The notes below the pieces were generated by a model. That model saw only the letters and a program-made list of their open reading frames with translations, had not been told where the DNA came from and ran no database searches. Shown here piece by piece: positions 7,520 to 64,000 of a DNA stretch of 64,000 bases (within the stretch, counting starts at the first letter, position 1; each line of letters begins with the position of its first letter). The position numbers were made by a program, and so were the translations under genes. This stretch comes from Chiloscyllium plagiosum (Eukaryota). Location of the stretch: assembly GCF_004010195.1 (NCBI RefSeq), contig NC_057755.1, forward strand, positions 4,115,462-4,179,461, in the 5' to 3' direction.

Positions 7520-7830
7520 TATTGAAAACAACAGATGCTGGAGATCACAGCGGGTCGGGGGCATCCATAGAAAGAGAGCGAATGCTTCTAGTGTAAGTGA
7601 CTCTTTATGAGAACTGAAATGAAGTGTGGAGGGACAGTATTTATGCTATAATTAGGGGTGGTGATGTGGGTGTTACTGTAGCATAAATGCTGTCCCTCCA
7701 TACTTCACTTCAGCTCTGATGAAGAGTCACCTAGTCTCGAAATGTAAGTTTGCTTTATCGCCATGCATGTTGCCTGGCCCACTGTGATCTCCAGCATTGG
7801 TTGTTTTCAGTCCACATTCCAGCACCTGCA
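7520..7830. mobile_element. Palindromic Penelope-derived mini-element with hammerhead-like core
   Basis: ~130-bp imperfect inverted arms around a spacer at ~7650-7676; core 'ctgatga-a-gag...ctc-gaaa' at ~7716-7743. Confidence 0.7.
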
Positions 7831-8274
7831 GTAATATTTTTCCGAGCTGCTAAATCTAACCCAGAGTCAACTCATAATTGGTGAAACAATCATTCATTCC
7901 ACTGTTACCTCTGTACAATTGCAACCAGCGTCTTATCAGCCTGTCATCAGGCTATAAGCTGCATGCATTTATTTTGTCCAAACTTCTTCCATCCTCCTGA
8001 TTTGCTTTCTCAACAATTCCATTCCCTGATCATCCACTGACTGCAGTGACCTACTTAGAGATATTCTACACTACATTCTCTATTTTATTTGTCTATTCAA
8101 AATGTTCCATTGTCAACCAATCATTTTTTTTTACATCTTTGGACTGGTGTAAATCTTGTTTTGAAAACTCCACATGAAAGTGTTCAATGTTCTGCTGTGA
8201 TACAAATGCTACCAGTTGCTGTGATGGGGAAATAAATTACAGATAATATTGCACTGTGTCAAATGGAAAGGTAG

Positions 8275-8572
8275 ATAAAAATGCCAGAAACAATAGGAAG
8301 GTAGACAGGTGGGTGAATGGAAAAACACGGCAAGCCAGGCAGCTGGAGGCGGACAAGTCCATATTTCGGGTGTAACCCTTCTTCAGGATTGGAGGTGTAG
8401 AAGTCGGACTCCTGAAGAAGGGTTACACCGGAAACGTCAACTTCTATACCTGCAGTCCTGAAGAACTGCTTCACCTGAAACATCGAATTCTACACCTTCC
8501 GATGCTGCCTGTCTTGCTGTGTTCTCCCAGCCTCCTGCCTGTCTACTTTGGATTCCAGCATCTGCAGTCTCT
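8275..8572. mobile_element. Palindromic Penelope-derived element with tandem hammerhead-like cores
   Basis: Inverted arms; cores 'ctgaagaagggttacaccggaaacgtc' (~8412-8438) and 'ctgaagaactgcttcacctgaaacatc' (~8458-8484), plus an antisense core at ~8362-8386. Confidence 0.7.
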
Positions 8573-8689
8573 ACCCAGAAACGATATTAAGCCTGACAAT
8601 TGGGCACAATTTAGGACCCAGCAAAAGATGAGCCAGACAATAATCACGCGAGGGAGAGAATATGAATTCAGCCTTCCCATTTACATTCC

Positions 8690-10834: not shown

Positions 10835-11650
10835 CTCCGAGGAGCTGGAAAATCGACGTTTGGGGCAAAAGCCCTTTATCAGGAATGGAGGCAGGGAGCC
10901 TCAAGTGTGGAGACATAAGTGTGGGGGGGTGGGGTCGGGGCTGGGGAGAAGGTAACAAAGAGTACAATAGGTGAATGCGGGTGGGGATGTAGGCGATGGG
11001 TTAGAGAGGAGGATGGGGGAAGATAACAAAGAGTAAAATGGGTGGATGGAGGTGGGGATGAAGTTGGTAGGTCAGTAGCGAGGGTGGAGTGGATAGGTGG
11101 GAGGGGAGACTGGCAGGTAGAACAGGTCATGTGGATGTTGCTGAGCTGGAAGTTAGGAACTGGGGTGAGGTGGGGTGGGGAAATGAGGAAACTGGTGAAG
11201 TCAACATTGATGCCCTGGGATTGAATTGTTCCGAGGCGGAAGATGAGTCTGTCTTCCTCCAGGCGTCGGGTGCTGAGGGAGCGGCAGAGGGCTAGGCCCA
11301 GGACCTGCATCTCCATGGCAGAGTAGGAGGGGGAATTGAATTGTTGGGCCACGGGGCGGTGGGGTTGATTTGTGCGGATGTCCCACAGATGTTCCCTAAA
11401 GCACTCTGCGAGGAGGCGTCTGGTCTCCCCCATGTAGTGTAGCCCGCATCGGGAGCAATGGATACAATGAATTACATTGGTGGATGCGGAGGTGAAACTT
11501 TGATGTATGTGGAAGGCTCCTTTGGGGCCTTGGATGAAGGTGAGGGAGGAGGTGTGGCCGCATGTTTTGCAATTCCTGCGGTGGCAGGTGAAGTTGCCAG
11601 GACGGGAGGGTGGGTTGTTGGGGAATGTGGACCTGACCAGATAGTCATGG
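10835..11650 (-). mobile_element. Penelope-like element 3' part (GIY-YIG endonuclease plus terminal repeat)
   Basis: ORF 10879-11433 'GETRRLLAECFREHL...PVAQQFNSPSYS...RRLEEDRLIFRLGTIQSQGIN' is the Penelope EN C-terminal half; degenerate hammerhead core at ~10855-10883. Confidence 0.85.
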
Positions 11651-12379
11651 GATATAGGGATTTCCTAGGTCATTGGAAAAGAGTGTAATTTGGTGTTTTT
11701 TTTATCCACGTTAAGAATCGGCTCTGGATATTTTACCAGTTTAAGTAAGTTCCAAACTTCCTCACAATAAATCTCCAGAACATTAAATACCCACTCCTTC
11801 CAAGCCCTCAATGAGTGTGGAGGTCGAATTTTAGAATAAGATTTAAACTTCACCATGTTCGGTCTGATCACGTTGCTGATAGTCTTTTCATAGCATTGCA
11901 TTCTCTCCTTGTAAAGTGAGGCAATTTGGATCTTCTCTCTGATCACACTCACTCCCAGACAGATCAGCCTGAGACACAGTCAGTGCAGTGACCTTGCCTT
12001 CCCTGAGTTTCGTCGTGCAGCCACATGCCTCCAACAAAGCCTGGTTGCAAACCGATTGTGATGTCAGGTCTCTTTCTGTGATGTTCCTGGTGAGGTCACA
12101 CTGGTTCTGTGAGGTCACACTTTGACCTGTCCAGTACAAGGGGCCTGACTGTGATCAAACATGGAGTTACTGAAATCTTCACTGTCATCAGGTTACAATA
12201 TGTTCATATTCCAGAATATGACATTGTGCAGTATGGGTGGTGCCCAGAGATGGGATTGTCATCATCTCTTATGCTTTTACATGACAATACCCAGTATTTG
12301 GCACTAATAACCAGTCACTGGTGATCACCAATGGTTGGGGGAAGCTGTTCAGTAAGGGAGATGAGAATTTGCATCAGTC

Positions 12380-21396: not shown

Positions 21397-21420
21397 ACTC
21401 CCCCATTTCTTTTTTTTACC
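21397..21420 (-). promoter_or_regulatory. ERV polypurine tract
   Basis: Minus strand 'ggtaaaaaaaagaaatgggggagt' immediately before the 3' LTR TG. Confidence 0.85.
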
Positions 21421-21479
21421 ATTTGTTGTTTTTGAATTTTATTTTCTGCCCTCTTTTCATCCTATGGTGCTGAGGTTCA

Positions 21480-22784
21480 CAATCTTGCCATTTCTGTCCT
21501 TCGAAGTCTGTCTTTTTGAAACTCTAGGAGTAATCTGCTACTCTTTCTTTCTTGCGCTTGTGCTATTGTCATGACCATTATTGATTGTTGTCCTCCCAAA
21601 GACATTACCAGCTTAGTCATTATCCACTTTAACACATTAAATCCTATCAGTCGACCTACAATTATTAGTAATACGTAAATGCCTAAATTAACTAACCACT
21701 TTCCCCAACCAGTCAGTCCCCAATCACCACAACCCCATCCCTCATCTTTTCGAAGTTCATCCCCAATTTCTCTTATATTGCTTATCTTTTTCTTTACTAT
21801 TTCTGCCTTATCTTCCACTATAGAAGAGGTGTCTGTGATGAAGGTGCAGCATTCCTTACCAATCAGAGCACAGGTTTCCACCTTTATCGGCCACAAGATA
21901 GTCTAAAGCCATTCGATTCTATAAACTGTTAGTCTTGTGGCAATAATTTCGCTGGTTATGGCCGATATTTGGGATTGAGTTTCTCCCATTGCGCCGGCGG
22001 TATCATTAATTAAATTTTCAAGAGCAGCCGCCAGTTTCTGTATTTCCACCCCTGCCCTTATAGTGCCGTAGTTTGGGAGTAGTGTCCACAGCAAACGGTC
22101 CCCTTCAGAGACCTCTCGGGTCTTAGGTCTTATCCCTCCCCCCCTTTCTCAGATTGGGCTCATGTTGTTCTATTCGGAGGTGAGGGACTATATAAGCGAG
22201 GTCTTGAGGCAGTGTTTCATCAACTTCATAACATGCATGTATTTCTACACATTCGGTCACGCGAACATATTTTTCCCCGGGAATAAATGGATAGGCCTTC
22301 AGACCGCATACCCAATATGTTCCGTTTAATATTCGGGGAGTGGTCATCGCAGTGGTTTGGCTGGTGTAGACGAAAGATGATTTTCCTAACTGGTAGGGTG
22401 CGGCGTCATTCTGATTACAGAAACAGGTGGTATTCACTGCTCCTTTCGATGGGGAAATTCTAAGGCTGTCGATATAACCCTGGGTTTTTAGGGCTGGCCT
22501 TGGGAACCATCCCGCAAAGTTATATTTGCTCCTTTCAGATTCCCACTTTGTATTATTTGAGCCCAAGTCAAATCGTTGTACATCGTACACTTCTTTTTTA
22601 TTGAGCGGTATTACAGAGGTGGGATTCCAGATTCTCCGTGGTGTGGAATTTCTGCACAGACCCAACAGTCGGCAAGTCCCTCTTGTTTAGCATAATTTTG
22701 GCATAGTGTAGTGAAATGATTTTTCCCACTTCCTTGAACAGTTAGTACTGCTAACATTACAATACTATACTAGTACCCGCCCAT
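21480..22784 (-). pseudogene. env: ERV env (gamma-type SU/TM), frameshifted
   Basis: Signal-like 'SIVMLAVLTVQG', SU CXXC 'DCWVC', 'NGTYWVCG..AYP', basic cleavage-like 'RPKTR', heptad repeat, immunosuppressive domain 'NRMALDYL' (in a shifted frame), CX6CC 'CALIGKECC', TM 'WLVNLGIYVLLIIVG'. Confidence 0.9.
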
Positions 22785-22862
22785 CTCTGAACCCTGCCTA
22801 TTGCCCTGTCTTAATCTTTTAGGCGCCAGGGAGAAGTGAGTCCACGCAACCCTTACACTCAA

Positions 22863-22867
<5 letters not shown>

Positions 22868-22912
<45 letters not shown>
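22868..22912. repeat. (TA)n microsatellite inside the ERV pol-env spacer
   Basis: About 22 perfect TA units. Confidence 0.95.
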
Positions 22913-22915
<3 letters not shown>

Positions 22916-22945
22916 TCAAACGTTAAAAGAGTCTTTTATCTCAGT

Positions 22946-25900: not shown

Positions 25901-26420
25901 CCTTGCGCCCCTCTAATGAAACTGGATATTGTTTAAGCTTTACTTTTTTATTTTCTTGTGACAGTGTAATTACGATGGGATTAACGTTTAAATGACCCGT
26001 GTCCCCGGTTTTCGTCCACACGTTAGGATTTATCTGTTCTTCATCACTAGTCGTTAGTTTATTTATTGTTACAGTTATTGAACTATTCTCTACACGAATC
26101 TTCAAGTTTAACAAAATTATTAAATCCCTACCCAAGAGATTGCTTCCAACATCAGGAATATATAATAGTTGTCCCGTCACTTCTTCGTTATTTCCCTTTA
26201 TTCGGGTCGGCTCAAAGATGGGCACTAAGAATCCTTCGCCTTTTACTCCAGAAACTCTGAGACTCTTATTAGTTACTTTAACACCGCGAGGTCTAAAAGT
26301 TAGGGATGACTGTGCCGCTCCCGTATCCACCAAAAACACTGCCTCCTCTCCTTCAGGTCCCACCTTCAGATTTATCAAAGTTTCCCGGTGGGTCTCAGGA
26401 GGAGGGAACCTCTGACTCCC
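22946..26420 (-). pseudogene. pol: ERV pro-pol (PR, RT, RNase H, IN), frameshifted
   Basis: PR 'FLVDTGA'; RT 'IDLKDVF', 'LPQGFTESP', 'LQYVDD'; RNase H 'LFIDGSS', 'HVPGH..GNRLADEIAK'; IN HHCC 'HQSSHWG...CAGCITC', 'IQVDY', 'DSDQGSHF', 'ERMNQTIK'. Confidence 0.95.
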
Positions 26421-27919
26421 CTATTCTTCATCAAAAGTCATCAATGACACTGCTTCTCTTTGTCGTCCAAACTTTGGACATTCCCTTTTAAAATGTCCTG
26501 TTTTTCCACAGTAATAACATCCCGACTGTTGCCTTCTTCCTCTACCATCTGATCTCTGTCTCTCTTGTTCTCCCCTGTTGTTCTCTGATTCTAACTTTCT
26601 CGTCGTAATTTTCTCAACCGCTGCAATCTTTATTTTAGCTTTCTGTTTTTGTTTCTCGTCTTCTCTTTTCACATATACTTTCTGTGCCTCACGTAACAAA
26701 TCTTCCATCTGGTTTTCACTCCATCCTTCTAATTTCTGTAACTACTTTTGTATGTCCGGCCATGATTTAGTCACAAACTGGCCCTTTAAGAGTCTGTGTG
26801 CTACCGGATCATCGGGATTCATTCCCGAATATTTTCTAGTGGTCTGTTTTCGTCTCTGTAAAAAGGCTGACGGGGCTTTTGCTCCTTCTCCTGTCTTACT
26901 TCAAAGGCTTTTAAAAAAATCTGAGATTTAGGTGCTGCTTCACTAATAGCCAAAATAACCATTTCTCGAAAGTCTCTCATTTCTCCTCTTTCATGTTCAT
27001 CCATGCCCTGCCAACAGGGGTCCACATTGGGGAATTTGTTTTCGGCTGGTATTTCTCTTCACCCACCGAATGTCTCTTCTTCCATTCCCTCAGGGCAGCT
27101 CTTCTGATCATACCCCTTTCTTCCCCTGAAAATAGCGTCCCCAGAATGCTCATCAGTTCACCCCATGTGTACAAAATCGGCCCCAAAAATTGGTCCAGCT
27201 GTTCCGTCAATCCTACGGGGTCTTCAATCAAGCTTTTCCTTTCTTTTTTTAAAGGATCTAACTTCACTGCTAGTTAGTGGTGCATTGACATATCCGATTT
27301 CGCCGTTCCCAACAGGTAGTTCTCTAAGGGGATATATTTGTGCCGTTGCCCCGCCTATGTTCCCCTCTTCCCTCCTTTTCACTGCTCATCTAGTCTTAAT
27401 TGGACGAGGGGGGAGGTCTTCCCCCAGACTTTTTCAATTCTTGTACTGGGGAGGGCGCTGTGGGAGAGGGGAAAATTGACAACAGACCATTACTCTCGTT
27501 GTCGGAAGGCGGGGGGTAAACTTGACAAATGATCTCAATGGGAAACCTTCGTTTCCTCAAAACCTTCTTCTGACTTTTTCGAAACAAGGATTTTCGGACT
27601 CCCTATTCAACAGGAAGCATAGTCAGATTCTTCACAGCAGTATTTTTGTTTCTTACTTACATATATATTTTAAATCTTTACATAGCCAATCTTCCTCTGA
27701 CCCATATTTTGGCCAAATTATACTTGGAGTTTTAATGCTTTCCTTCGCCCAGACAAAACAACAGAATTTTATCATTTCTTTTTTATCCTTTCCTCGCGTC
27801 CGAGGATTGTACTTCCGATTTCTTAACATTTTTCCTAAAGGACTGTCCATTGGGATGTGGTCCTCGGACGTCCTTCTAATGTCTCCTACTAAACTTAAAT
27901 CACTATTTTTATTCCCCAT
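26421..27919 (-). pseudogene. gag: ERV gag, frameshifted
   Basis: Myristoylation-type start MGNK; MA 'IPMDSPLGKML...MIKFCCFVW...WPKYGS'; single CCHC knuckle 'CYYCGKTGHFKREC'; amber TAG at 26423-26421 in frame with pro. Confidence 0.93.
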
Positions 27920-28185
27920 TTCAGTACGCAGTCGTTTCTTTATGTAATTTAGTTAATCTTTCTGAGGTCTGGTGTAACCTTCTTCCATACCCACTTCAGG
28001 GTCCTGAACTTCACAAAGGAGATTTCTCCTCTTAGCAACCGGTCTAAGGTTGGGTGATCGAATCAGGTAGACACCTTACTCGTCAGATTAATCTAGCCAA
28101 TTAGATATTTTATTTTATATGTTGCCAATTCCCCATACTTCTCGTACGTCCCCGACCACCAAGGCAATACTCAAAGGTCAATTTT

Positions 28186-28195
28186 CTTACCTTGG
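28186..28195 (-). promoter_or_regulatory. Candidate ERV major splice donor (for env mRNA)
   Basis: Minus strand 'ccaag|gtaag', a consensus donor in the leader upstream of gag. Confidence 0.55.
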
Positions 28196-28242
28196 TCTGT
28201 GCACAAGAGTTACCTGGTAGAATCAACGCACCCCATTCTGCA

Positions 28243-28431
28243 GCAATACCTGGCAACCACTACCGTTGCCTATCCTGATCTGACCAAACCTCCCGCTGCG
28301 TGTCAGCGCGCCCTGTCCCATGGCAATACCTGGCAACAACTACCGTTGCCTATCCTGACCTGACCAAACCTCCCGCTGCGTGTCAGCGCGCCCTGTCCCA
28401 TGGCAATACCTGGCAACCACTACCGTTGCCT
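28243..28431. repeat. 80-bp tandem repeat (~2.4 copies) in the ERV leader
   Basis: 'gcaatacctggcaaccactaccgttgcctatcctga...ccctgtcccatg' at 28243, 28323 and 28403 (partial); further diverged pieces to ~28630. Confidence 0.9.
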
Positions 28432-28772
28432 GTATCCGGGTCATATGTACAAAATATTTACCCGAAAGAACTCACCACATATCAGCGCGCCCTGTCCCGC
28501 GGCAATTCCCAGATATATCTACCTGGCAGCAACTACCCCTGCCTACCCCAGTCGCCCGGATAAATCTTTTAAGATCTTTCTTACTCGGGTCTTGTGCACA
28601 CAAGAGTCACCTGACCAAACCTGCCGCGTCTGCCCATCTTGTTTCCAGAGTCTCTCAGCCCGGATCACGCTCGTCCAAGCTGCTGTGGCAAGGAGGGAAA
28701 CTCGAGACCGCCGAAATCTGCGAGGTGCACCTTCTCCATTTTCCCAAAAATGCTGAGCCACCGGAGCTTGGG

Positions 28773-28790
28773 ATCCCGGATGAGCCCCCA
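28773..28790 (-). promoter_or_regulatory. ERV primer-binding site, tRNA-Pro
   Basis: Minus strand TGGGGGCTCATCCGGGAT versus the MLV Pro PBS TGGGGGCTCGTCCGGGAT (1 mismatch); 2 nt after the LTR terminal CA. Confidence 0.93.
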
Positions 28791-28792
28791 AA

Positions 28793-29439
28793 TGTGCTCG
28801 AAACAAAATCAATAAAATTTAAATGAGACCACCAACACTGGAAACAAGACAATTTATTCTACGATCTTATAGGAAAGGGCATCAATTGCAGAAGCAAATG
28901 AGCAATGAGAATTCAAATTCCTACACAGTTATACCTTTGAGCTGCGTGAGGTCATCTCTCCCGACTCCTACATTACCCAATCTGTCTTAGTATTCTGCCA
29001 CTGCCCAGCTGTGCTCCGCCCTTATTTCCCCATCTCTCCAAGTTGGCAACCTTTCCCTCTGTAAGTGCTGACATAAGGCTAAACTTGTATCTCGATGTTC
29101 TTCTTACTTTGCTTGTAACATCTTTCATTGTCCATAGGTATATTCCATTCTTGAACATACGTTTTAACAATGTATCTTTTCGTGCCTAGTTTATGCGTTT
29201 CAACTATCTCAGCTATTTTGCTGAGACTATTATTTAAAACATTAAGATGAAAGAAATTATTTGCTTTAATAATTCTGCACTAAAGTTGGTACTCACTTAT
29301 CCACAATTATACATTAAAGATAAAGACACATTTCCCTAATGTTTGCTTAACTGATATTTTACTTGTACCCCTTTGTCTGCACATACACTCTCTTGTTTTT
29401 CTATTTTTGCAAAAACAACGCACTTCCCCATTTCTTACA
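28793..29439 (-). repeat. ERV 5' LTR (647 bp)
   Basis: Minus strand TGTAAG...AGCACA; matches the 3' LTR; followed by the PBS. Confidence 0.95.
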
Positions 29440-29514
29440 GGTCACACCCGGAGTAGGTCCCTTTTGCGTTTTTGTTTTCTCCCGTGAAAGGGTTGTTTCT
29501 GTTTAAAGAGTTGT

Positions 29515-29710: not shown

Positions 29711-30374
29711 ATAATGGTGGTTATTGTGGTGGGGGGAGAACGGAGAGATTCTTGCTGTTTCTCCCTTCCTCACACTGTCCTACACCAGGTGAATGATGAT
29801 GATTGTCTGTTGTTTCCATCTCTCTGATCCGGGAACTTCACTGTTCCTCAGGTTAGTGACCACTACTAGCCAGAAATGGGATCTGCAGCCACCCTGCACA
29901 AATGTTCAGCGTCTGTGAGGCTCAACGGAGCAGCTCATGTGAACAATCAGTTTCTGTCTGTATACTGAGCACTCACTTTGGGATACGTTCAGATTGAGAA
30001 ATAAAACAACAGCTTGTATTTTTAAATCATATTTTTTGGATATTTGTGAGCTTGTCCAGTTCAATTGTATTCAAAATTGAGCACAATTTTGCAAAACAAT
30101 TTGAGCATTAGTCTGAAAGAGTTGAAACAGAGAAAATTTCATAATAAAGTGTAAAACTCAGGAGCACTGATTGTTGTGAGGCTGGTTCTGACACGTTCAT
30201 CCTCTTTCCCCATCTCTGCAGTCTATGTTGGAATTGTTCAGTGATTCCAACAGCTTCTGTAATTATTTCAGATTCCCAATGGGAGCAGGATCTCATTTGT
30301 CGTGCTCAAAAAATCCCTGTGCTGACATCAACATTTAAATAAGAAATAGGAAGCAGCGGAGAGGAAAGCTTACA

Positions 30375-31345
30375 AGATGGAAAGTGTGGCACTGGAAAAG
30401 CACAGCAGGTCAGGCAGCATCCGAGGAGCAGGACATTCGAAGTTTCAAGCAGAGGCCTTCAACTGGATTTATGCTTTAAATGTTGATTCTCTTGCTTCTC
30501 GACCTGCTGTGCTTTTCTAGCACCACACTCTCGACTCTGATCTCCAAAACCTACAGTCCTCACTTTCTCTAAACCTGTCTCGTCAGGTCTGCGCCTTCTA
30601 ACAACACACCCTCCCCTCTTGGCACGTTCTTTGCAATGGCAGGAATTGCAAAACCTTTGCCCACACCTGTCCCCTCACCTCCGTCCAAGGCCCCAAAGAA
30701 CCCTTCCACATCAATCAAAATTTCACCTGCACTTCCACACATGTCATTTACGGTATCCGTTGCTCCTGATGTGGTCTCCTCTACATTGAGAGACAAAAGC
30801 GCCTCCGTGCAGAGAGCTTCAGAGAACATCGCCAAGACACCCGCACCAAACGATCCCACCGCTTTGTGGCTAAACACTTCAACTCGCCCTACCACTCTAC
30901 CGAGGACATGCAGGTCCTGGGCATCCTCCATCACTGCTCCCTCAGCACCCGACACCTGGAGGAAGAACGTGTCATCTTCCACCTTCGGACCCGCCAAACC
31001 AATGACATCAATGTGGACTTCACCATTTTCCTAATTTCCCCTCTCCACCTTCCCCCAGATCCAACCTTCTAGCTCAGCACTGTCATGACCTATCTATCTT
31101 CCTTCCCACCTATCCACTCCAGCATCCCCTCCATTCTATCACCATTACCCCCACCTCCATCCACCTTTCACACTATCAGCTACTTTTCCGCCCAGCCCCA
31201 CACCCTTCCTTTTATCGCTCCAACCTGGAGGCTCCCAACCTCACTCCTGATGAAGGGCTTTTGTCCGAAATGTCGATTTTCCTCCTCCTCGGATACTGCC
31301 TGTCCTGTGCTTTTCCAGCACAACATTCTTGACTCCGAGATGCTG
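30375..31345 (+). mobile_element. Penelope-like element 3' part (GIY-YIG) with inverted terminal hairpin and hammerhead core
   Basis: 'VIYGIRCS*CGLLYI' GIY-YIG region; 'AKHFNSPYHSTEDMQVLGI...LEEERVIFHL'; core 'ctgatgaagggcttttgtccgaaatgtc' at ~31247-31274; inverted repeat at 30390-30570. Confidence 0.85.
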
Positions 31346-31512
31346 AGAACGCTGCCTGGTTCCACATTGCAATTTCCCAGAAACCATCATCAGAAAGATC
31401 GAGCAGCAATCTGATGGATCCATTAGGTACATTTATGCACTTTTAGACAAAAATCACCAATAAATCCTATCTTGAGATTTTTCCTTTGAAAATTGCTTTT
31501 AAGCTGCGACCT

Positions 31513-31584
31513 TGCAATGACTGGGGATCAAACTCTGGTCAACTGCAAGGAAGGCAGCTATGTTCACCACTATACCACCATCAC
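31513..31584 (-). pseudogene. tRNA-Gly(TCC) pseudogene
   Basis: Minus strand gtgatggtggtatagtggtgaacatagctgccttccttgcagttgaccagagtttgatccccagtcattgca (72 nt), colinear with vertebrate tRNA-Gly-TCC; T-arm and anticodon-arm mutations. Confidence 0.85.
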
Positions 31585-32419
31585 TCTGACAACGAGCTTC
31601 TCAGTATTCCCAAACTCATTTAACTAAACTGTGATCATCATCAATTGAATCGGGCTGAATTAAAAACAGAATTGACTGGAAAAACCCAGCAGTTCTGGCA
31701 GCATCTGTGATGTGAAATCAGAGTGAAACCATTCTGTTACTTTTTTTTTAATGATGCATCAATGTATTTGCGTCACTGCTGGCTGGGACCTATTGCTCAA
31801 ACATAATTGCTGTGGCGAAGATGACGATGGGTTATCGTTTTTGAACTGCTGCAACGATTTGGTGCAGATGAATGTACCAAGGGAGGGAGTTACAGGATTT
31901 TCAAACAATGGCAATTGTGGAACCAAGATGTTTTTCCAAGCCAGAGTGATGAGTGGCTTGATGTGGAATTCTCAAGTGGTGGTGTTCCTGTATATCTGCT
32001 GTGCCTGGTGGTCTAGACTAAAGTGCCGTGGGTCTGGAAGCAGCTGTGGAAGGCAACTTGGTGAATTTCTGCAGTTAATCTTGTCTGTTGTGCACACTGC
32101 TGCTCCGAAGCATCGGTGATGGAGACAGGGGTTGTTTTTGGCTGTGGTGCTGAGCAAGCTGCACTGTAAGTGTATTCTACCTAAATAATGAGAGCACAAC
32201 TACTCTCCATTATAATCAGTCCATTTCACAGATGGTCAGCCAGTGATTACCTGGATATGTTGTACAAGCCTGTTAATTGTACAAATGACCAAGAGATTTT
32301 AAACAGATTTACTTCTTCCCTGACAATAGGTTGAGGGACATTACGCAACTGTTCAACGTTCTCATTCACATTTCATCTGTAAAAGCTGGAGATGAGTTGA
32401 TTGACACAGTTTGTGCACA

Positions 32420-32600
32420 CTGTGTGCGTGTGTTTCTGTCTGTGTGTGTGTTTTTCAGCGTCTGTGTCTCTGTGAATCTGTCTAACTAATTGTCTGTCTG
32501 TGTCTGTGTGAGTGTCTGTGTTAGAATGTCTCGGCATTGTACTAATATTTGTCTCTGTATTTGTGAGTCTCTCTGTGACTGTATTTCTCTGCAATGGGCT
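32420..32600. repeat. Degenerate (TG/TCTG)n low-complexity repeat
   Basis: tgtgtg/tgtctgtctg runs. Confidence 0.7.
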
Positions 32601-32844
32601 GTCTGTTACTTTGGGATTTGTTTCATTTGAAATGACTCTGTCCATTTTTCTTAGGTTTAAAGTGATACAATGCTGTTGGTCATATTGATGTGTATCAGCG
32701 TGTTTTGTTGTGCACCCACCTCTGTCTGCAATGGGACACAATTTATCCTGGAGTGAAGTTTGAATTAATTAATTAATTGATTAATTAAAAACCAATGAAT
32801 CAATGTCTGTGGCTCTGTCTGTATCTGTTGTTGTTTACTTGGAA

Positions 32845-34915
32845 ATCAGTAAAATGAGATCACATGGGATTCAGGGTGAGCTTGCTAATTGGATACAAAA
32901 TTGGCTTCAGGGCAGGAAACAGTGATGGCAGAGGTATATATTTTGGACAGGAGGCCTGTGACCAGCGGTGTTCCACAGGGATCGGTACTGGATCCACTTT
33001 TGTTTGGCATTTATATAAATGATTTGGATGGGAATATATAAGGCACGTTTAGTAAGTTTACGGATGATTGGTGGTGAAGTGCTCAGTGAAGAATATTACC
33101 TCAGATTACAAAGAGATCTTGATCAATTGGTTCAATGGACTGAGGAGTAGCAGATGGAGTTTAATTTGTAAATGTGTGAAGGATTGCATTTTGGTAAAGC
33201 CAACAGGGATAGAACTTAATGGTAGGGCTCTGGGTCGTGTTGTAGAACAGAAAGACCTCGGGATTCAGGTACATCATTCTTTGAAATGTGTATTCTCAGT
33301 AGACAGGGTTGTTAAGAAGGCGTTTAGTAAGCTTGGCCTCATTGCTCAGACCATTGAATACAGCATTTGGGATGTTATACTGAGATTTTACAGAATGTTA
33401 GTGAAACCTCTTCTAGATTAATATGTGCAATACTGGTTGCCCTGTTACAGGAAGGATTAAACCTAAGAGGGCTCAGTAAAGATTTACCAAGATGTTGCCG
33501 GGAATGGAGGGTTTGAGATGTAAAAATAGACTCGGAAGGCTAGGACTTTTCTCACTGGAACATTAGGGATGGGCGGTTGAACTTATTGGGGTTTATACAA
33601 TCATGAGGTGCATAGAGAAGATAAATGACAAGGTCTTTTCTATCTGGTGGGGGAATATCAAACCAAGGGGTCACATTTAAAGGTGAGAGGAGAAAGATTT
33701 AAAAAGGACCTGAGGGGCAACCTTTTTACACAGAGTGGTTTGCATATTGGAAAGAACTGCCAGAGAAAGTGATGTATGCAGGGACAGTTACAACATTTAA
33801 AAGGCAGAGATTCATAGAGATGTACAGCACAAAAACAGATCCTTCAGTCCAATTTGTCTATGTCCACCAGATACCGTAAGTAAATCGTGTCCCATTTGTC
33901 AGCACTTGGCCCATATCCCTCTAAACCCTTCGCATTCATATCCTCATCCAGATGCCTTTTAAATGTTGTAATTGTACCAGCCTCCACCACTTCCTCAGGC
34001 AGCTCATTCCATAAAAGCACCACCCTTTGTGTGGGAAAGTTGCCCTTTAAGTCTCTTTTAAATCTTTCCCTTCTCACCTAAAGCCAATGTCCTCTTGTTT
34101 TATCCTATCCATGCCCCTCATGATTTTATAAACCTCTTTAAGGACACCCCTCAACCTTCGACAATGCAGGTAAAACAACCTCAGCCTATTCAGCCTTTCC
34201 CCATAGCTGAAACCCTTCACCCCTGGCAACATCCTTGTAAATCTTTTCTGAATCCTTTTCCGGTTTCACAATATTCTTCCTTTAGGAGGGAGACCAGAAT
34301 TGAATGCAGGATCTCAAAGTAGCAGAAACAATGTCCTAAGCAGGCGGGACATGACCTTCTAACTCCTATACACGATGCTCAGGCCGATAAAGGAAAGCAT
34401 TCCAAATGCATTCGTCACTATCCTATCGACTTTCGACTCCACTTTCAAGGAACTGTGAACCTGAGCTCCAAGGTTTCTATGAGGAGAAAGTGAGGTCTGC
34501 AGATGCTGGAGATCAGAGATGGAAATGTGTTGCTGGAAAAGTACAGCAGGTCAGGCAGCATCTAGGGAACAGGAGAATCGACGTTTCGGGCATTAGCCCT
34601 TCTTCAGGACCATGAAGAAGGGCTAATGCCCGAAACGTCGATTCTCCTGTTCCCTAGATGCTGCCTGACCTGCTGCGCTTTTCCAGCAACACATTTCCAT
34701 CTCCAAGATTTCTATGTTCAGCAACCATTAAGTGAATAGGTCCTGGCCGGATTTGCTTTTCTAAGATGCGCATTTGGAAAAGTTCATGAACAGGACAGGT
34801 TTGAAGGGATACGAACCAAGCACAGGCAGGCGGGACAGTTTGGTTTTGGAAGATGGTTAGTGTGGATGGGTTGTCCCAACCGGTCTGTTTCTATGCTGTA
34901 TGATTCTATGACATT
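32845..34915. mobile_element. Plus-strand CR1 (32845-~33805, resuming ~34770-34915) with a nested minus-strand CR1 (~33806-34770)
   Basis: Plus RT '[20 protein letters not shown]'; minus 3' ORF 'RRERFKRDLKGNFPTQRVVLLWNELPEEVVEAGTITTFKRHLD'; the plus copy resumes with 'catttggaaaagttcatgaacagg...ttctatg'. Confidence 0.8.
34482..34700. mobile_element. Palindromic Penelope-derived mini-element with a 16-bp TSD and hammerhead cores
   Basis: 91-bp arms 34516-34606 / 34613-34703 (2 mismatches), 6-nt loop; TSD ctccaag(g/a)tttctatg at 34466-34481 and 34701-34716. Confidence 0.9.
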
Positions 34916-35209
34916 ATAGCAGGCTGTCAAATGACAATTTAGTCTCTGCACATGCTCCCTTTGTCCTACAACCCAGGGGCTGGGACATGACATGGAGAGT
35001 GTTGTGGATGGATCGAGACACAGAGCGTCTCTTATACACAGTGAGTGTGTAATGCAGGAACTACAGAATGGATGGTTCATGGGAGATGACGACACACAGG
35101 GAGGGCAATTAGACAGGTGCCATGAAAGGGGGAGGTACTAAGTTTGTGAGACTGCAGAATTGCCAAGGTGGGGTGTGTAAAATTGGGGCGGGAGGGCTGC
35201 AGTTTCAGC

Positions 35210-35465
35210 ATTGAAAGACAGAAATAGGGAAGGAAAGAAAGAAAGAGAAAGAGAGAAATTGAAATGTGAAGGAAGAAAGCAAGAGAGTGGGGAAAAATCC
35301 ATGAAGTTGTAAGAAGAAGTAAGAGAGAAAAAGACAAAAAGAAAGGCTGTCAATAAGAAAGAGAGAGAGAATTTAAGAGAGAAAAAGATTGAGTGAGAGA
35401 GAGATATGTGGAATGTAAAAGAGAGAGAAAATAGAGAGAAAAGAGGGAAACTCAGAGATAAACAG
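35210..35465. repeat. GA-rich low-complexity tract
   Basis: Almost purely purine (gaaa/gaga) on the + strand. Confidence 0.85.
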
Positions 35466-36955: not shown

Positions 36956-37839
36956 CTACTTGGATTTATTCACCAGTTGCATTATTTTTATAACTGAATA
37001 GTTCACGGCATACTTTAACTGGTCTCTAAATTTTTTCTGGGTCACCACATAGATAAGTGCATTTGTGCAGCAACTTAGGTTCCGCAGCATATATGCAACT
37101 TCTCGAAAGAGACGATAATCATAGTAACTCAAGGAATCACCAGCTTCAAAGAACTTTAAAATAAACAGAAACCACAGAAGTATGAAGCTGGCGGATATGG
37201 CAAAGAGTAAAATCACAGAATTCTTTCTGCTCTCTATCTCTGGGTCACTCTCTATTTTTCCCTGAGCCCTCAGTCCCTTACGCATCTTCATAGCCTCGAA
37301 GATGTGTCTGGCGGTCAGAATGTTGAGAAAGAGAATAAAAGTGAATGGGAGCATTGGTGTTATAAAATGTTCAAAGAATTTAAAAGCTTCCCACCGGTCA
37401 CGAAAATAACTGGACCTGGTATCACAATACCATGGAACATTGTTGATAATCTTTTCAGGTTTATATCGAAAGTATTTGGGAATGTTCTTTAAAGAAAAGA
37501 AAATGCAGATTGTTGCTATAACTCTCTTTGCAGTTTTCTTTGTACAGTACTGAGCTTTCATATGATGAAAACAAATGGCGATAAATCGATCAAAAGCAAA
37601 AACAACAGTGAACCAGACAGAGCAATCAATGGTCAAGTGGCTCAGAGCATAGATAACACTACAAACAGGAATGATGTCCAGGAGACACTGTGGATAATAA
37701 TAATACGGAAATCTGTGAAGTACAACGTCAAAAATAACGAACAGTAGATCAGATGTTGCCATGGCCACAAGGTAGTGAGTGGTGCATGAAGAAAGGCCAC
37801 ATTTCCGCTGAGCTAAGATTATTATTACCACGAGACTGA
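36956..37839 (-). CDS. GPR139-like class A GPCR, copy B, exon 2
   Basis: Acceptor 'ctctctctcctacag|tc'; open frame to TAG at 36956; 'DCSVWFTVVFAFDRFIAIC', 'SCCTNALIY'; clear paralogue of 3405-4291. Confidence 0.92.
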
Positions 37840-38219
37840 CTGTAGGAGAGAGAGAAAGGAATGAACAGATTAGAAGTTACTGATCAAAGATTCTCTGATG
37901 CCTGAGCCCAGGCGTAAATAATGGCACCAAAAATAATTGTTGCTCCATGTCATATGAATTTTAAAGAATCTGAACCAAAGCAGCAATCCCTCTTGAAATG
38001 AACCATTTGCACTTTTAAAAGACAGAGGGAAGAACATGGACAGCAGATTGCTCACAAAAACAGAGTCATGTACTCATTGTTTTGGGGGGATTGGTAGTGG
38101 TTGACTTCAGTTGTTTTGTAGGTTACTCAGACTGGCTGGAGGTTCCCTTGAGACCATAGCATCCACACAATTACACCTTGAATCAGTGAAACAAAGAATG
38201 GGAGACAGCAACGTGGACA

Positions 38220-39725
38220 TTGATTGCAAAATTTCTGTGGATGCAGGTTTGCTCGCTGAGCTGGAAGGTTGATTTCCAGATGTTTTGTCACCTTAGTAGG
38301 TAACATCGTCACTGGGCCTCCAGGCGAAGCACTGTTGATGATTCCTGCTTTCTCTCTATATGTTTGGATGTCTTTGGGTTAGTGATATCATTTCACGTGG
38401 TGATGTCATTGCCTGTGGTGATGCCATTTCCTGTTCTTTTTCTCAGGGGTGGTAGATGGGGTCTAACTCGATGTATTTGCTGATAGAGTTCTGGTTGGAA
38501 TGCTATTCTTCTTGTAATTCTCGTGCATGTCTCTGTTTGGCTTGTCTTAGGATGGATGTGTCGTCCAAGTCGAAGTGGTGTATTTCCTTATCTATATGTA
38601 AGGATACCAGTGAATGAGGGTCATGTCATTTTGTGGCTAGTTTATTTTCATGTATCCTGGTGGCTAGTTTTCTGCTTATTCGTCCAATTAGTGTTTGGTA
38701 CAGTTTTTGCTTGGTATTTTGTAAATTCCATTAGCTTTTCTTGTTGTCTGTACAGAGCCTTTCAAGTTCATTAGCTGTTGTTTTAATGTGTTGGTGGGTT
38801 TGTAGGCTACCACAGCTACGACATCAAGAACCATAACCTGAGTGACAAATCTTCTCGAAACCCGCAAAATTTTAGTCTTAGGTTTTGCAGACTCTACAGC
38901 TCATATTGCCCCCAGAATTGTATATCCACACTGTATGAACGGCAGTACAGGGCATTGAATTATGCTGTCCACAATGTGGATGAACAAATGATCAGGCATT
39001 GAGTCCCTCCCTCATGGACAGTATTAAACATCCTGACAATCCGTACCATGGAAGTATTCAGCAGTGAATCCAACCACCATGTTCCAAGCTGCATGCATAC
39101 CGAAATTATGAACCCTGCAACAATTGACACGGACTCCCCCACATGTCCAACATCGTACATCACAGCCTCCACCCAAATAAGACATGAATCCATGCTGCAT
39201 TGTTCATTGCAACTTACTGATTTAGAAATCACACATTTTATAAGGGATTAAGTGAAGCTTCCTGCCTGTGTCCAGGCCCATACTCCCAAACCCATCTCGC
39301 TATGAATAGAGATCCTGGTTGGATGCCAGGCCTCTAGGAGTTCTCTGGCATGTCTTTTCTTAGCCTGTCCCAGGATAGATGTGTTGTCCTCGTAGAAATG
39401 GTGGTTTATTTCCTCCGTGTGTATGGCTACGAGGGAGACTGGCACTCCAACCACAACGCCATAAACAAACACATAGTTCTAGATACCATCTATCATTCCC
39501 TCAGAGAATGAACAGGAAATGACATCACCACAAACCCCAGGAACCCCATCCAGGACAAACATATAAATAGAAAGCAGGAGACAACAGCTTCGTTTCACTT
39601 GGAGGTCGCCACTGATGATATTACCTAGCCAAGTAATGAAACGTCTGCATATCAAACCTACAGCTCAGCGAGCAAACCTACACCCTAAGCCTCAACCTGA
39701 GCGACAAACATTCACAAACCTTGCA
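38220..39725. mobile_element. Fragments of a second Penelope family in the intron of GPCR copy B (38220-38810 -, ~39310-39440 -, ~39450-39725 +)
   Basis: 'HHFYEDNTSILGQAKKRHARELLEAWH'; terminal hammerhead core 'cca-ctgatga-tattac...gtaat-gaaacgtc-tg' at ~39612-39645; interleaved with host intron sequence. Confidence 0.75.
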
Positions 39726-44099: not shown

Positions 44100-45130
44100 A
44101 AAAAGTCCTGATTGATTCAGTTTTTTGAAATGGGAACCAAGAAGGTAGATGAGGGCAGTGCGATAGCCATTGTCCACATATACTTTAGCAAGATCTTTGA
44201 CAAAGTATCTTATGGGTAGGTTATTGAGTAAGGTTAAATCTCACGGGGAGAAAGTGAGGACTGCAGATGCTGGAGATCAAAGTCGAGAACATAGTGCTGG
44301 AAAAGCACAGCAGGTCAGGCAGCAGCCGAGGAGTAGGAGAGTTTATGTTTCAGGCATAAGCCCTTCATCAGGAATTATGTAGGGCTAATGCCCAAAACGT
44401 CGAAACTCCTGCTCCTTGAATGCTGCCTGACCTGCTGTGCTTTTCCAGCACTATACTCTAAATCTCACAGGATCCAGGAGAGCTAGCCAATTGGATCCAA
44501 AATTGGATTGATGATAGATGGCAGAGGATGGTGGGAGATGAGTGTGCTTCAAACTGGAGGCCTGTGACCAGCAGTGTACCACAGATTCTGGGTCCACTGT
44601 TATTTATCATTTATATCAATGAATTGGATAGGAATTTCAGAGATAACATTAGTAGGTTTGTGGATGGCACCAAGATTGATGGTACAGTAGGCAGTGAAGA
44701 AGGTTATCTGGAAATGTAGAGAGATCTTCAACAACCGGGCCATTGGGCTGAGGAGTGGCAGATTGAGATTAATTTAAATAAATGGAAGGTGTTGCATTTT
44801 GGCAGGACTTACATAGACAATGGTAGGGTCCTGGGAGTGTGACAGAACAAAGAGTTTTTTTCATCATTCAGAGCATTAGCTATTGGGATTGGGATGTCTT
44901 GTTGCAGCTGTACAAGATATTGGTGAGGCCACATTTGGAATGCTGCATGCAGTTCTGGTCGCCTTACTATATGAAGGATATTATTAAAGTGGAAAGAGTG
45001 CAGAAACGATTTACTAGCATGTTGGCTTGTCTGGATGGTTGGCATTATAAGGAGAGGTTAAATAGGCTGGGACTCTTCTTCCCAGGAGAATGAAAGACTG
45101 AGGGTTGACCTTACTGAGGTCTACAAACGC
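44100..45130 (+). mobile_element. CR1 ORF2 fragment carrying a palindromic Penelope mini-element (44247-44458)
   Basis: 'VTSSVPQILGPLLFIIYINELD..ISRFVDGTKI', 'LQLYKILVRPHLECCMQFWSP'; the insert is flanked by taaatctcac(g/a)g at 44235-44246 and 44459-44470. Confidence 0.85.
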
Positions 45131-49434: not shown

Positions 49435-49780
49435 GGAATGATCCAATGAAGATTGGTTCGCAAGATGAGATCACATAGAGAAATGGCCATTTGGATGCAG
49501 AACTGGCTTAAAAGGAGGAGACAGAGGGTGGTGATGGAGGGTTGCCTTTCAGACTGGAGGTCTGTGATCAGCGGGATGCCACAAGGATTGGCGCTGGGTC
49601 CACGAGTTTTTGCCATTTATATAAATGATTTAGATGTGAACATAGGATATATAGTTGTTAATATTGCAGATGACATCAACATTGGAGGCGTAGTGGACAG
49701 CGAAGAAGGTTACCACCAAGTACAACGGGATCTTAATCAGATGGGCCAACTGGCTGAGGTGTAGCAGATGAAATTTAAAA
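49435..49780 (+). mobile_element. CR1 RT fragment
   Basis: 'WMQNWLKRRRQRVVMEG..SGMPQGLALGPRVFAIYINDLD..ADD'. Confidence 0.85.
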
Positions 49781-49784
49781 ATAC

Positions 49785-52050
49785 AGCAAGTCAGACAGAA
49801 TCAAAGGAGCAGGAGGGTTGACGTTTCGGGCATAAGCCCTTCATCAAGAATATGGGAGGTGGGGAAAGGGGACTGAGAGATAAATAGGAGGGTCGGGATG
49901 ATAGTGGGGGGAAGGTAGCTGGGAAGGCGATAGGTAGGTGCATGTTGGGGCTGACAGTGATTGGTCGGAGCAGAGGGGGAGCAGATAGGTGGGAAGGAAG
50001 ATGGACAGGTCGGACAGGTGAAGGGGGCAGTGCTGAGTTGCAAAGTTGGATCTGGGATGAGGCGTTGAGAGAGGAGATTAGAAACTAGTGAAGTCGATGT
50101 TGATGCTGTGTGGTTGAAGGGTCCCACTGAAGAAGATGAGGTGTTCGTCGTCCTGGCGTCAGATGGCTGGTCCTTGGTGGAATGGGTAGGAGAGTTGAAG
50201 TGGTCGCCCACAGGGCGGTGGGGTTGTTGGGAGCATGTTCCCTGAAACTTTCCAGGTGTTGGCGTCCTGTCTCACAGATGTTGAGGAGACCATATTGAGA
50301 CCAATGGACACAGTAGATATGGTGTTTGAATATGCAGGAAAATCGCTGCTGGATGTGAAAAGATCCTTTGAGGGCTTGGATGGGAATGAGTGGGGAGGTG
50401 TGAGCACAGGTCGTACATACCTTGTAGAGGGAATGGAAGGTGCCAGGTGTGGAGAATGTGTTTGTTGAGAACGTGAACAGATCAAAGGAGTCGCGGGGAG
50501 AATGGTGTCTGCAAAATGTTGATGGGGTGGGGAGGGAAATATGTGTCTGGTAGTGGGGTCTGACTGTAAGTGGCAGAAATGGTGGAGAGTGATGCGTTGT
50601 ATCCGCGGATCAGTGGGGTTGAAGGTGAGGGCCAGAGGGGTTCTATCCTTGTTCCAGTTGGAGAGGTCTGGTTCAATGGCAGAGGTTCAGTAAATGGAGG
50701 AGATTTGCTGGAAAGCATGGTTGATCATGTGGTAGGGCCGAAAGCATTCCTTGAAATAGGAGGCCATCTGGGATACCCTGGAGTGAAATTGCTCCTCCTA
50801 TGAACAGATACAGCAGAGGCAGAAGAATTGGGAGCAAAGAGTCCTGTTTTTACGGGGGTGGGGTAGGGAAGAGGTGTAATCCAGATAGCTGTGGGAGTCG
50901 GTGGGTTTGGAATAGAGTCTGTGTTGAGTCGGTCACCAGAGATGGAGACAGAGAGGTCCAGGAAAGGGAGGGAGTTGTCCGAGATGGTCCACGTCACGGT
51001 AAAAGGTGTTAGTGAAGCTGATGAACTGTTCAACCTTCTTGCGGGAGCACAGTGTGGTGCTGGTACAGTGTTCAATGTAGTGAGGGAAAAGGTGGGGAAC
51101 GGTGCCGGTGTAGCTGCAGAAGATGGACTGTTCCAGGCATTCAATGAAGAGGCAGGCACAGTTGGGGTCATGCAGGTGACCATGGTATGAAGGAAGAGGG
51201 AGGATTCGAAGGAAAAGTTATTGAGAGTGAGGACTAGTTCCACCAAGTGAATGAGTGTGTCAGGGGAGGGGTACTGAATGAGTCAGGAGGAGAGGAAGAA
51301 ACGAAGAGTTTGGTGTATGGATGTGTACAAGGGACTAGATGTCCATGGGGGGCAGGGGAACCGAAAGTCATGAAGGAGGTGGACAGCGTGGGTGTGCCCC
51401 GAATGTATGTGGGGAGTTTCTGGATCAAAGGGGAACAGGATGGTGTTGAGATGTGAGGAGATAAGTTCGGCGGGTCAGGAGCAAGTGGAGATGATGGGTT
51501 AAATGGGGCAGTCAGGTTTGTAGACCTTGGGCAGGAGGTAGACCTGGTGGTGCAGGGCTCCTGGACTATGAGGCTGGAGGCTCTGTTTGGGAAATCCCCT
51601 GAAGTGATGAGATTGTGGATGGCCTTGGAGATATTTGTTTGGTGATGGAAGGTGAGGTGATGGTCGATGTGGCAGTAGGAGGAGGTGTTCTCGAGTTGGC
51701 ACCTAGCTTCAGTAGTGTGGAGGTTAGTTTGACAAACAACCACTGCACCCCGTCTCCCTTTCCGCTGGTTTGATTGTGCGGTTAGAGTGGAGGTGAGGTA
51801 GTCGAGGGCTGCGTTTTTGGAGGGTGAGAGGTTGGAGTGGGTGAGGGGGATGGACAGGCTGAGGCGGTCAATGTCACAGCAGCAGTTGGAGATAAAGGTT
51901 GAGGGGTTGGATAACAGATCAGGACGGGGTGTCTAAGTGGATTGCGTTCTCAGAGTGTGGGCAGGAATCACGGTTGACAAAGTAAGGACGGAGGTGGGAG
52001 AAGGAAAGTTTGATATCACAATGCATATGGAAGTTGTTTGCATGGGAACG
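49785..52050 (-). mobile_element. Penelope-like element (RT plus GIY-YIG), decayed, with a terminal hammerhead core
   Basis: 'YLLPKVYKPDCP', 'ELVLTLNNFSF', 'SLPFLDLSVSI', 'DHFNSPTHS'; minus-strand core 'ttgatgaagggcttatgcccgaaacgtc' at ~49820-49847. Confidence 0.85.
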
Positions 52051-63109: not shown

Positions 63110-64000
63110 TCGACATTATGGTGCAGCTTTTTAGCCTCCACTGTGCTTTTGTTTACCACTTTAACAAATTCACTGGCTAACCCTGTTTTTCTACATCCAT
63201 CATCCTTGTGCTTTTATCTAACCCACTAACACTGTGACTTCATGCAGCCTACTCTATTACTGCAGCTTTTTAACTTCTCTTTCCCCTTCATGGATGTCAT
63301 TTTACCTCGTGGTAAGTTATTCTTGTTCTCTTCACTGAGATCTACTTTTCCCTTCCCGCCTGAAGACTTCTCTGGTCTCCAATATTTTACCTCCTGGATT
63401 GAAATTGATGTCGGAAGCCAAGCTTTGATTTATGAACCAACTCATAACCATTAGCCGTTTCAGCTGCTAACCCTGCCATTTTAACTCTCTGCCCTCAGCA
63501 AGTCAGGCAGCATCCGAGGAGCAGGAAAATTGAGTTTTCAGTCAAAAACCCTTAATCAAAAATCATTTTGCCCGAAACATCGAGTTCCTGCTCCTTGCAT
63601 GCTGTCTGACTTGCTGTGTTTTTTCAGCACCACACTCATGATTCTTCCACATGAGTTCTCATTACCCCATAGTGAATTTTTTGAATTTCTCCAAAATAAT
63701 CAACTCTCTAAGAGTGTCATATGTTTGATCTATTTTAATGCCCTCATCCACCTCTCAAAATTACTTTGTTTGATCCTTTCAAGTTCAATGTATATTTGAC
63801 TGGGGTCCCTCCTGATATTCCTGAAACGTTGTCTGTAGACTTCTGGCTAAAGCTGATATGCATTTAAAATGGATTTCTTCAGTTCCTCATACGCTCTTGA
63901 TAGCTAATTTAGCTGTACCCACCAGTTTGGTCTGGACCAACAAAACCCAAATGGTCACTGGCCACTTCATTCTTTAGTCACTTTTGCAAATGAAATGAAA
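63110..64000 (-). mobile_element. Second Gmr1-like Gypsy gag fragment (runs off the window), with a Penelope hairpin insert at ~63496-63640
   Basis: Colinear with 48000-48740 (e.g. 'ttactttgtttgatcctttc', 'ggtcactggccacttcatt'); 'EVYRQRFRNIRRDP'. Confidence 0.8.

Follow-up and report, generated by a model that had tools for sequence, protein, structure and literature searches.

Hammerhead-bearing palindromes in a bamboo shark DNA window are probably insertion products of Penelope-like elements

Introduction

Is the palindromic insert at positions 34466..34716 of the window (the whole 64-kb stretch of DNA that was analysed) a small mobile element in its own right, or a piece left behind by a larger one? 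The original prediction had described self-contained, ribozyme-bearing units mobilised by the protein of a Penelope-like element (PLE) or, alternatively, extreme 5'-truncation products. We conclude that the inserts are most likely dead end-pieces of a known retroelement class.

A palindromic insert with a one-sided tail

Sequence comparison across the window established that the palindrome, its target site duplication (TSD) and a second copy are all real. The insert is non-coding and 219 bp long, with near-perfect inverted arms of 91 nt each that are 98% complementary and separated by a 6-nt spacer (Table 1), much as originally predicted. The 16-bp TSD was also predicted correctly and has one mismatch; among 300 random pairs from the window, one reached at least 13 and none went above 13. 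The insertion is hosted by a repeat, and a paralogue of this repeat (17079-17273) lacks the insert and has the 16 TSD bases only once. Such empty paralogous sites confirm two insertions, those at 34466 and 44247, each with its TSD in single copy at the empty site.

The insert is asymmetric, which the original prediction missed: a tail is present on the minus arm only. Judged by sequence, the palindrome with its one-sided tail of 34-37 bp corresponds to the published 'inverted pLTR plus tail' build at a reduced size of about 220 bp. About three bases of the centre match neither arm. By eye, the minus strand of 34516-34550 and the family copies contain a branch-point-like word, a pyrimidine run and an AG, resembling a splice acceptor; introns are known in PLE terminal repeats.

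Table 1. Coordinates of the insert at 34466, of the other palindromes and of longer PLE copies in the window
Feature	Position	Strand	Basis or remark
Left TSD, 16 bp	34466..34481	+	repeat comparison; single copy at empty site 17188-17203
PLE 'tail', 34 bp (37 bp including 3 bases common with the far-end TSD)	34482..34515	-	arm comparison
Left arm, PLE end module read on the minus strand	34516..34606	-	arm comparison
Intact minimal type I hammerhead core	34580..34607	-	descriptor scan
Centre, 6 nt; left arm to -2, right arm from +2 (relative to C3)	34607..34612	.	arm comparison
Right arm, short-ended; core without C3; final 3 bases common with TSD	34613..34703	+	arm comparison, descriptor scan
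Right TSD	34701..34716	+	repeat comparison
Second, older palindrome; insert 44248-44458	44235..44471	.	arm, TSD and empty-site comparison, descriptor scan
Composite of an inverted short arm (30375-30464), an arm with tail (30466-30569), a truncated PLE body including the GIY-YIG region (30570-31244) and an end module (31245-31335)	30375..31335	.	
Decayed palindrome, family of 34466	63496..63636	.	left arm and left TSD lost; empty paralogue 48229-48506
Palindrome, second PLE-like family	8284..8586	.	12-bp TSD with 1 mismatch, one tail
Palindrome, third family	7526..7845	.	one tail; TATA-like box passed by both arms, a counter-example to run-off
Longest PLE copy in the 34466 family, with a broken ORF for RT and GIY-YIG, a TATA-like box (-39) and a hammerhead-like end module	49777..51977	-	tblastn
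5'-truncated PLE copy: GIY-YIG region, upstream box, core	10836..11754	-	tblastn

Link of the arms to Penelope-like elements

The sequence of the arms also ends three longer copies in the window, where it lies downstream of broken RT and GIY-YIG reading frames. In tblastn searches, protein P0001 and its relatives matched 49777-51977, 10836-11754 and 30611-31033, in each case directly upstream of arm sequence, and the broken frames of the longer copies match a 486-aa bamboo shark protein (70% identity) and its relatives. Pfam recognised RVT_1 and GIY-YIG on the relatives, with P0001 itself below the curated cut-offs; eight pieces of the broken PLE frames of the window gave nothing relevant in Pfam, and a PDB sequence search with two PLE fragments gave no match and one chance match. 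On the strength of this contiguity, which bears out the predicted PLE origin of the hairpins, the arms are identified as the hammerhead-bearing terminal module of an RT and GIY-YIG PLE whose bodies lie in the window. Two more broken PLE-like bodies are found at 58968-59825 (minus strand, a distant family) and at 555-1106 (plus strand).

A tail of 30-40 bp at one end with an adjacent inverted, truncated copy is described as standard for PLE insertions (PMC8557442, PMC3846280, PMC8969392), and for Drosophila Penelope a tail of 34-37 bp is given (PMC2377424). Our copies have the marks of insertions by endonuclease-bearing (EN+) PLEs: RT linked to a following GIY-YIG, a head-to-head inverted 5'-truncated copy and a one-ended tail of 30-40 bp. 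Each unit is very probably a single insertion event of such an element in the 'inverted copy plus tail' form, reduced to the last 90-135 bases. The predicted alternative of extreme 5'-truncation products comes close to this, except that the point of truncation is not random (see below).

Other hairpins of the window

Six hairpins had been named as related. Four of them, including those at about 30390 and 63500, are of one family, whereas those at about 7520 and 8275 belong to two further families. Duplications of at least 12 bp were found for three of the six (34466, 44247 and 8275), and none for 30375, 63500 and 7520 (at 7526..7845, none of at least 9 bp). The second copy is an independent insertion as predicted, with a TSD of 13 bp with one mismatch instead of 12 bp; its arms (44286-44368 and 44377-44459) are 82% alike, its tail of about 38 bp (44248-44285) is on the minus arm and both its hammerhead cores are broken. 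Its host is a repeat that, from its translation, we take to be LINE-like and RT-encoding. At 30375-31335 the palindrome directly precedes a truncated body and a second end module, which is the published complex form of PLEs; no TSD was found for this composite. In the plus arm of the 8275 palindrome, 8410-8497 is a decayed tandem repeat of a 46-nt hammerhead-like unit, which fails the descriptor described below and is possibly the seed of a retrozyme-like dimer.

Mis-assembly can occur at long perfect hairpins. Nevertheless, the probability that we are dealing with an assembly artefact or a chance inverted repeat is negligible, given the TSDs, the empty paralogous sites, two mismatches between the arms, aged palindrome copies with an arm identity of 76-83% and the same build in independent metagenome contigs.

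Hammerhead cores and RNA folding

A minimal-hammerhead descriptor modelled on PMC4209133 was run on both strands of the window and gave three matches, compared to none in 20 shuffles. Only one match falls within the two elements at 34466 and 44247: the minus-strand core at 34607, where the motif is present exactly as originally predicted. This core has C3 at 34607, a bulged A, a 4-bp stem II and a palindromic zero-loop stem III; the predicted cut is between 34580 and 34579 and stem I has 4 bp, with two G-U pairs. It is the only one of the four cores that qualifies as a minimal type I hammerhead: the plus-strand core at 34466 lacks C3 (A at 34612), and the predicted pairs of opposed cores are thus reduced to one intact core in four. 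Rfam gave no hammerhead match on the window up to E = 5 (five weak matches), and the core pattern had no match in viral and prokaryote genome contigs.

The 34466 unit folds into a single hairpin of -193.6 kcal/mol, and none of 200 shuffles folded as well, in agreement with the predicted potential for a dsRNA hairpin; folding of small windows did not bring out the hammerhead, which is the expected result for a motif of the dimer type. Because the unit is head-to-head, an antisense arm is transcribed first whichever strand is read. Self-cleavage of RNA from either strand, also part of the original prediction, is not supported, as only one core of four is intact and the predicted hairpin would bury this core on either strand. 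The modelled folds make long dsRNA likely, if the locus is transcribed, and self-cleavage of read-through RNA unlikely. Minimal PLE hammerheads are reported to cleave weakly even as dimers (PMC4209133), and the hammerhead of an anole PLE to need its protein for cleavage (PMC11167929). Another family in the window (38239-38315 and 39609-39685) has an intact minimal hammerhead at 39612 (plus strand) with a 6-bp stem II; a TATA-like box precedes this hammerhead by about 50 bases, and an inverted partner lies at a distance of 1.3 kb.

A second family and the position of the centres

With C3 of the core numbered +1, the arms of the four window palindromes start at -2/+2, -4/+4, -4/+13 and -4/+13; the farthest-reaching arm ends between -2 and -4 in all four. 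When metagenome contigs were scanned for the core motif (GCCC stem), 35 loci were found, of which 24 distinct ones form a second family that has only the core in common with the window family. Half of these (12/24) are palindromes of the same build, ten of the twelve with TSDs of at least 12 bp (null 7/300). Ends were counted in 22 second-family copies. The count leaves out L035 (the same locus as L028), the GC-rich chance matches L005, L021 and L026, seven loci of other families (L001, L016, L017, L023, L024, L027 and L030) and two copies with ambiguous upstream assignment (L009 and L012), which are counted against in the worst case below.

Fifteen of the 22 copies end between +5 and -14, one ends between -15 and -70, and six run on. 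This corresponds to 15 events in 276 bases at risk, compared to one in 349 (P = 4e-5 under constant hazard; P = 6e-4 with the two dropped copies counted against), with windows for this and the TATA test that were set after the data were seen, and with a sample that is biased by the required GCCC stem and under-counts ends downstream of +6. The 150 bases upstream of the core were scored with a weight table in 17 copies that extend that way, and in 13 of these, which represent at least four unrelated families, the best TATA-like score falls at -41 to -34; the boxes of the window score weakly in two of three copies. An initiator-like word (pyrimidine-A-pyrimidine) is found at -4 to -9. The usual spacing from a TATA box to the RNA start is 30 bases, which would put the start at -4 to -9. 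The centres are non-random: they cluster at the core, about 30 bases downstream of the TATA-like box. There are exceptions: the box is at -21 in L009 and at about -50 at 39612, both arms of 7526-7845 pass it, and L022 ends at about -27 to -35. TATA and initiator motifs have been reported in the pLTR of a rotifer PLE (PMC3846280); the promoter of Drosophila Penelope is also in the pLTR, but is described as TATA-less.

Two other sources of the clustered ends were rejected. Hammerhead cleavage does not account for the centres of most copies, which keep at least 28 bases upstream of the cut site, with arms starting near the predicted cut site only in L011 and perhaps in L033 and at 61378. A splice acceptor is rejected because neither family has an AG at that place. 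An ORF start in the arm is not supported, as the 120-residue N-termini of long relatives gave no convincing match.

Several metagenome loci are observations of their own. L002 (1580-2251) is a longer second-family head-to-head pair with both arms reaching more than 145 bases upstream of the core. L001, L016, L017, L023, L027 and L030 are a third group of hammerhead-bearing PLE ends; L001 has a full RT and GIY-YIG frame and a TATA-like box at -37. In L007, L008, L014, L015, L019 and L025 the arms differ at one letter of stem II (GCTC versus GCCC), which may be a recurrent stem-perfecting change picked by the search pattern, or may reflect two RNA templates.

Replicating unit or insertion product

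The outer ends recur: 1209 contigs of the shark-like run X2 diverge from the insert at 34482 into unrelated flanks (agreement 0.34), and RNA reads leave it near 34696. These fixed ends, together with the TSDs of the second-family palindromes, would suit non-autonomous palindromic mini-elements, retrozyme-like or SINE-like, that are copied whole by the PLE protein, and PLEs are described as mobilising sequence in trans and as having non-autonomous derivatives (PMC8557442, PMC3846280). However, fixed outer ends and an own TSD are expected of any PLE insertion too, and the copies have no inherited internal structure: the centres differ in all four window palindromes and are of 11 kinds among the 12 second-family palindromes. 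That the centres vary while the outer ends are fixed argues against a replicating unit. The short stubs also lack the TATA-like box and any retrozyme-type tandem, and their core would be buried in dsRNA.

Two recurrences bear on the same question. A centre form shorter by two bases at 34610 is present in 44 X2 contigs (about 6% of the summed depth at this position), 16 X11 contigs and 9 of 55 X21 reads; it could be either a favoured joint or a minor lineage. L014 and L025 have one centre and one variant in common, but their tails are on opposite arms, which would need a two-tailed master, and such a form was seen in none of 17 assessable palindromes. In both, the rare GCCC letter is on the same arm, which counts against the two-primer mechanism proposed below; as the search pattern selected for this letter (8 of 9 partner arms lack it), the chance of a same-arm position is about one half. 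All in all, mobilised non-autonomous units, as originally predicted, are disfavoured, and we regard this reading as very improbable.

No RNA data set is listed as containing 33800-35400. On 30200-35400, RNA depth is about equal on both arm strands and 95% of the reads continue into other sequence. From libraries unsuited to the purpose, run X21 (RNA) gave no pile-up of starts or ends on this stretch and run X22 placed nothing there. No circular-RNA joint or discrete RNA was found among the matches listed, a weak test with an unsuited library, and no empty-site joint of reads on 30200-35400 among the joints listed (there are 4135 more, and the flanks are repeats). In both DNA runs the summed contig depth of the arms exceeds that of the PLE body more than tenfold, a figure that is limited by sequence likeness and is not a copy number.

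Tail polarity and a possible mechanism

Exactly one tail is found in 11 of the 12 second-family palindromes (the partner arm of the twelfth is decayed), in all three assessable palindromes of the window family and, likewise, in the families of 7520 and 8275. In the second family the tail is on the later-starting arm five times, on the earlier arm four times, and three cases are tied or unclear; the tail at 30466 in the window is also on the later-starting arm. In L022 the inverted arm consists of the tail alone and begins at the end position of the short arm.

This polarity bears on ordinary PLE truncation with self-priming. In that scheme a first strand, or else an antisense RNA, forms a fold-back close to the hammerhead and is copied, and resolution of the hairpin by the endonuclease leaves a one-sided tail. 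Self-priming is the published reading of head-to-head PLE junctions (PMC3846280), and a tail by endonuclease-mediated resolution has been proposed as well (PMC8557442); it would also fit the many letters that the arms of 34466 have in common and that other window copies lack, and the short overlaps at many centres. However, because the farthest-5' arm is the template, a fold-back copy cannot exceed it at the 3' end, and plain cDNA fold-back therefore cannot produce a tail on the later-starting arm, as seen in five of twelve palindromes and at 30466; both arms must then be copied from a tail-holding source, most simply the RNA. In addition, L019 has no loop between its arms. The version with an antisense template survives the tail polarity, but requires that antisense 3' ends happen to fall some 30 bases away from a TATA-like box of the sense strand. 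We consider self-priming unlikely.

That exactly one arm has a tail indicates that two RT starts are coupled. The PLE protein of Poseidon from green anole, a predicted dimer, cuts and extends both strands and begins RT at two internal positions that delimit the tail, with uncleaved RNA as template; in vitro, both strands used the same RT starts (PMC11167929). Identical starts on both strands do not by themselves explain one tail per insertion.

We propose a two-primer run-off mechanism. Transcription from the promoter of the terminal repeat would begin 4-9 bases upstream of the hammerhead core. The PLE protein would nick both target strands 12-16 bp apart, and RT would begin at two positions within the RNA, one for each strand and 35-55 bases from each other, giving the short end and the tail end. 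One cDNA would run off the 5' end of the RNA, and the other would halt there or a few to tens of bases earlier; the two cDNA 3' ends would then be joined head to head via 0-3 bases of microhomology or filler. The product would have fixed outer ends, a variable centre, one tail and a TSD but no promoter, and would be dead on arrival; read-through would give a long dsRNA hairpin with the ribozyme paired to its own antisense. The tail-only arm of L022 looks as if one RT had halted at the start of the other. In an mRNA begun in the upstream repeat, the RT start sites are close to the 5' end, and this would account for the greater depth of the arms than of the body. The scheme is built on observations from these loci (anatomy, TSDs, the PLE link, end clustering, tail polarity and TATA-like spacing) and takes both-strand nicking and two internal RT starts from the in vitro work of others; its start site, run-off, two primings and end-joining are our own proposals, and this part could equally well prove right or wrong. 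Taken as a whole, PLE insertion products made by two-primer run-off are the explanation that we favour on balance.

The same two-primer build could also arise with ends that cluster by RT stalling or release at the folded hammerhead or at a bound protein. All ends are near one structured motif, and the later arms at 30466 and 63560 and of L010, L011 and L033 begin in or near stem II or the predicted cut site. But the farthest ends are upstream of stem II, after RT has crossed it; beyond -14 truncation nearly ceases; and the spacing to the TATA-like box is kept across families. Stalling as the cause of the clustering appears quite unlikely.

Other features of the window

A provirus-like element is found at 20700-29508, with terminal repeats (20754-21396 and 28803-29439) that are 94% alike, minus-strand matches to protease, RNase H and integrase in separate frames and an 80-bp tandem at 28243-28431. 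Two intact single-exon ORFs for 306-aa 7tm_1 receptors (3371-4291, plus strand, and 36956-37876, minus strand) are about 81% alike and of opposite orientation. An open frame at 53866-54426 (plus strand) has a NACHT domain (E 2.6e-21). A tRNA-like match at 31513-31584 (minus strand; 28.6 bits, just below the Rfam threshold) is possibly the head of a SINE. At 14174-15368 about 500 bp are duplicated in tandem (90% alike), and a partial copy is present as well.

Discussion

Taken by themselves, the inserts are ordinary PLE debris; what makes them valuable is that they form a natural experiment on PLE transposition. The origin of the inverted ends and the one-sided tail of PLEs has been named as unresolved (PMC8557442). 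Fold-back and two-strand priming can be told apart by the polarity of the tail, the position of the centre and the tail-only case, all of which can be counted in assemblies of sharks and marine invertebrates. Tentatively, the stubs may be the genomic record of a step in PLE transposition in which one RNP primes both strands at the two internal RT start sites and, on an RNA from the terminal-repeat promoter, runs off after about 100-140 bases. The order of parts (TATA-like box, a gap of about 30 bases, RNA start, ribozyme core, short end and tail end) would then be common to unrelated families from shark-like and marine metagenome hosts. If the stubs are as abundant as the read depth suggests, they also bring to introns and UTRs a large potential source of dsRNA, and if the run-off reading is true, genomes would be flooded with promoterless, dsRNA-forming hairpins.

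This analysis adds the confirmation by empty sites, a second family that comes from other organisms, a TATA spacing that recurs in several families and the argument from tail polarity. In the open literature we came across no description of PLE mini-palindromes arising by run-off or twin priming; such a description may exist in subscription papers, in Repbase notes or in the supplements of bioRxiv papers.

With EN+ PLE insertions (PMC3846280, PMC8557442, PMC2377424) our palindromes share the head-to-head terminal copy, the one-ended tail, a TSD of about 8-16 bp, RT with a C-terminal GIY-YIG in longer copies and promoter motifs in the terminal repeat. They differ in consisting of only two end modules (about 220 bp, no ORF) and in centres that cluster at the 5' edge of the hammerhead, which those accounts, as far as consulted, do not describe. 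The core itself resembles metazoan PLE hammerheads (PMC4209133) in CUGANGA, the bulge before stem II, G10.1-C11.1, the palindromic 15.2-16.2 and the short stem I. In Schistosoma, hammerhead pairs 100-700 bp apart on opposite strands were noted in 2014, and single motifs from truncated PLEs have been noted too (PMC4209133); here, in contrast, the cores are 6-30 bp apart, one is usually clipped and the motif lies in a perfect duplex.

Poseidon of green anole (PMC11167929) is alike in its two internal RT starts that bound the tail, the cutting and extension of both strands and the uncleaved RNA template. Its ORF starts in stem II, whereas a search for an N-terminal match to the arm was negative here; as far as consulted, that account does not deal with inverted products or run-off stubs. 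Non-LTR retrozymes (bioRxiv 10.64898/2026.07.22.740005; PMC7229834) are, like the inserts, non-coding, hammerhead-bearing, derived from PLE terminal repeats and present in cartilaginous fish. They are, however, described as head-to-tail tandems with two complete ribozymes per cycle, while the inserts are head-to-head with at most one. A retrozyme identity was rejected: neither 34466 nor 44247 has a head-to-tail tandem with two consecutive complete hammerheads.

In LINE-1 twin priming, the second target strand reportedly primes inside the same RNA and an inversion results, and L022 has this non-overlapping layout. LINE-1 inversions are said to duplicate no sequence; in the stubs, by contrast, the overlap between the arms is almost complete, and little homology is needed for priming.
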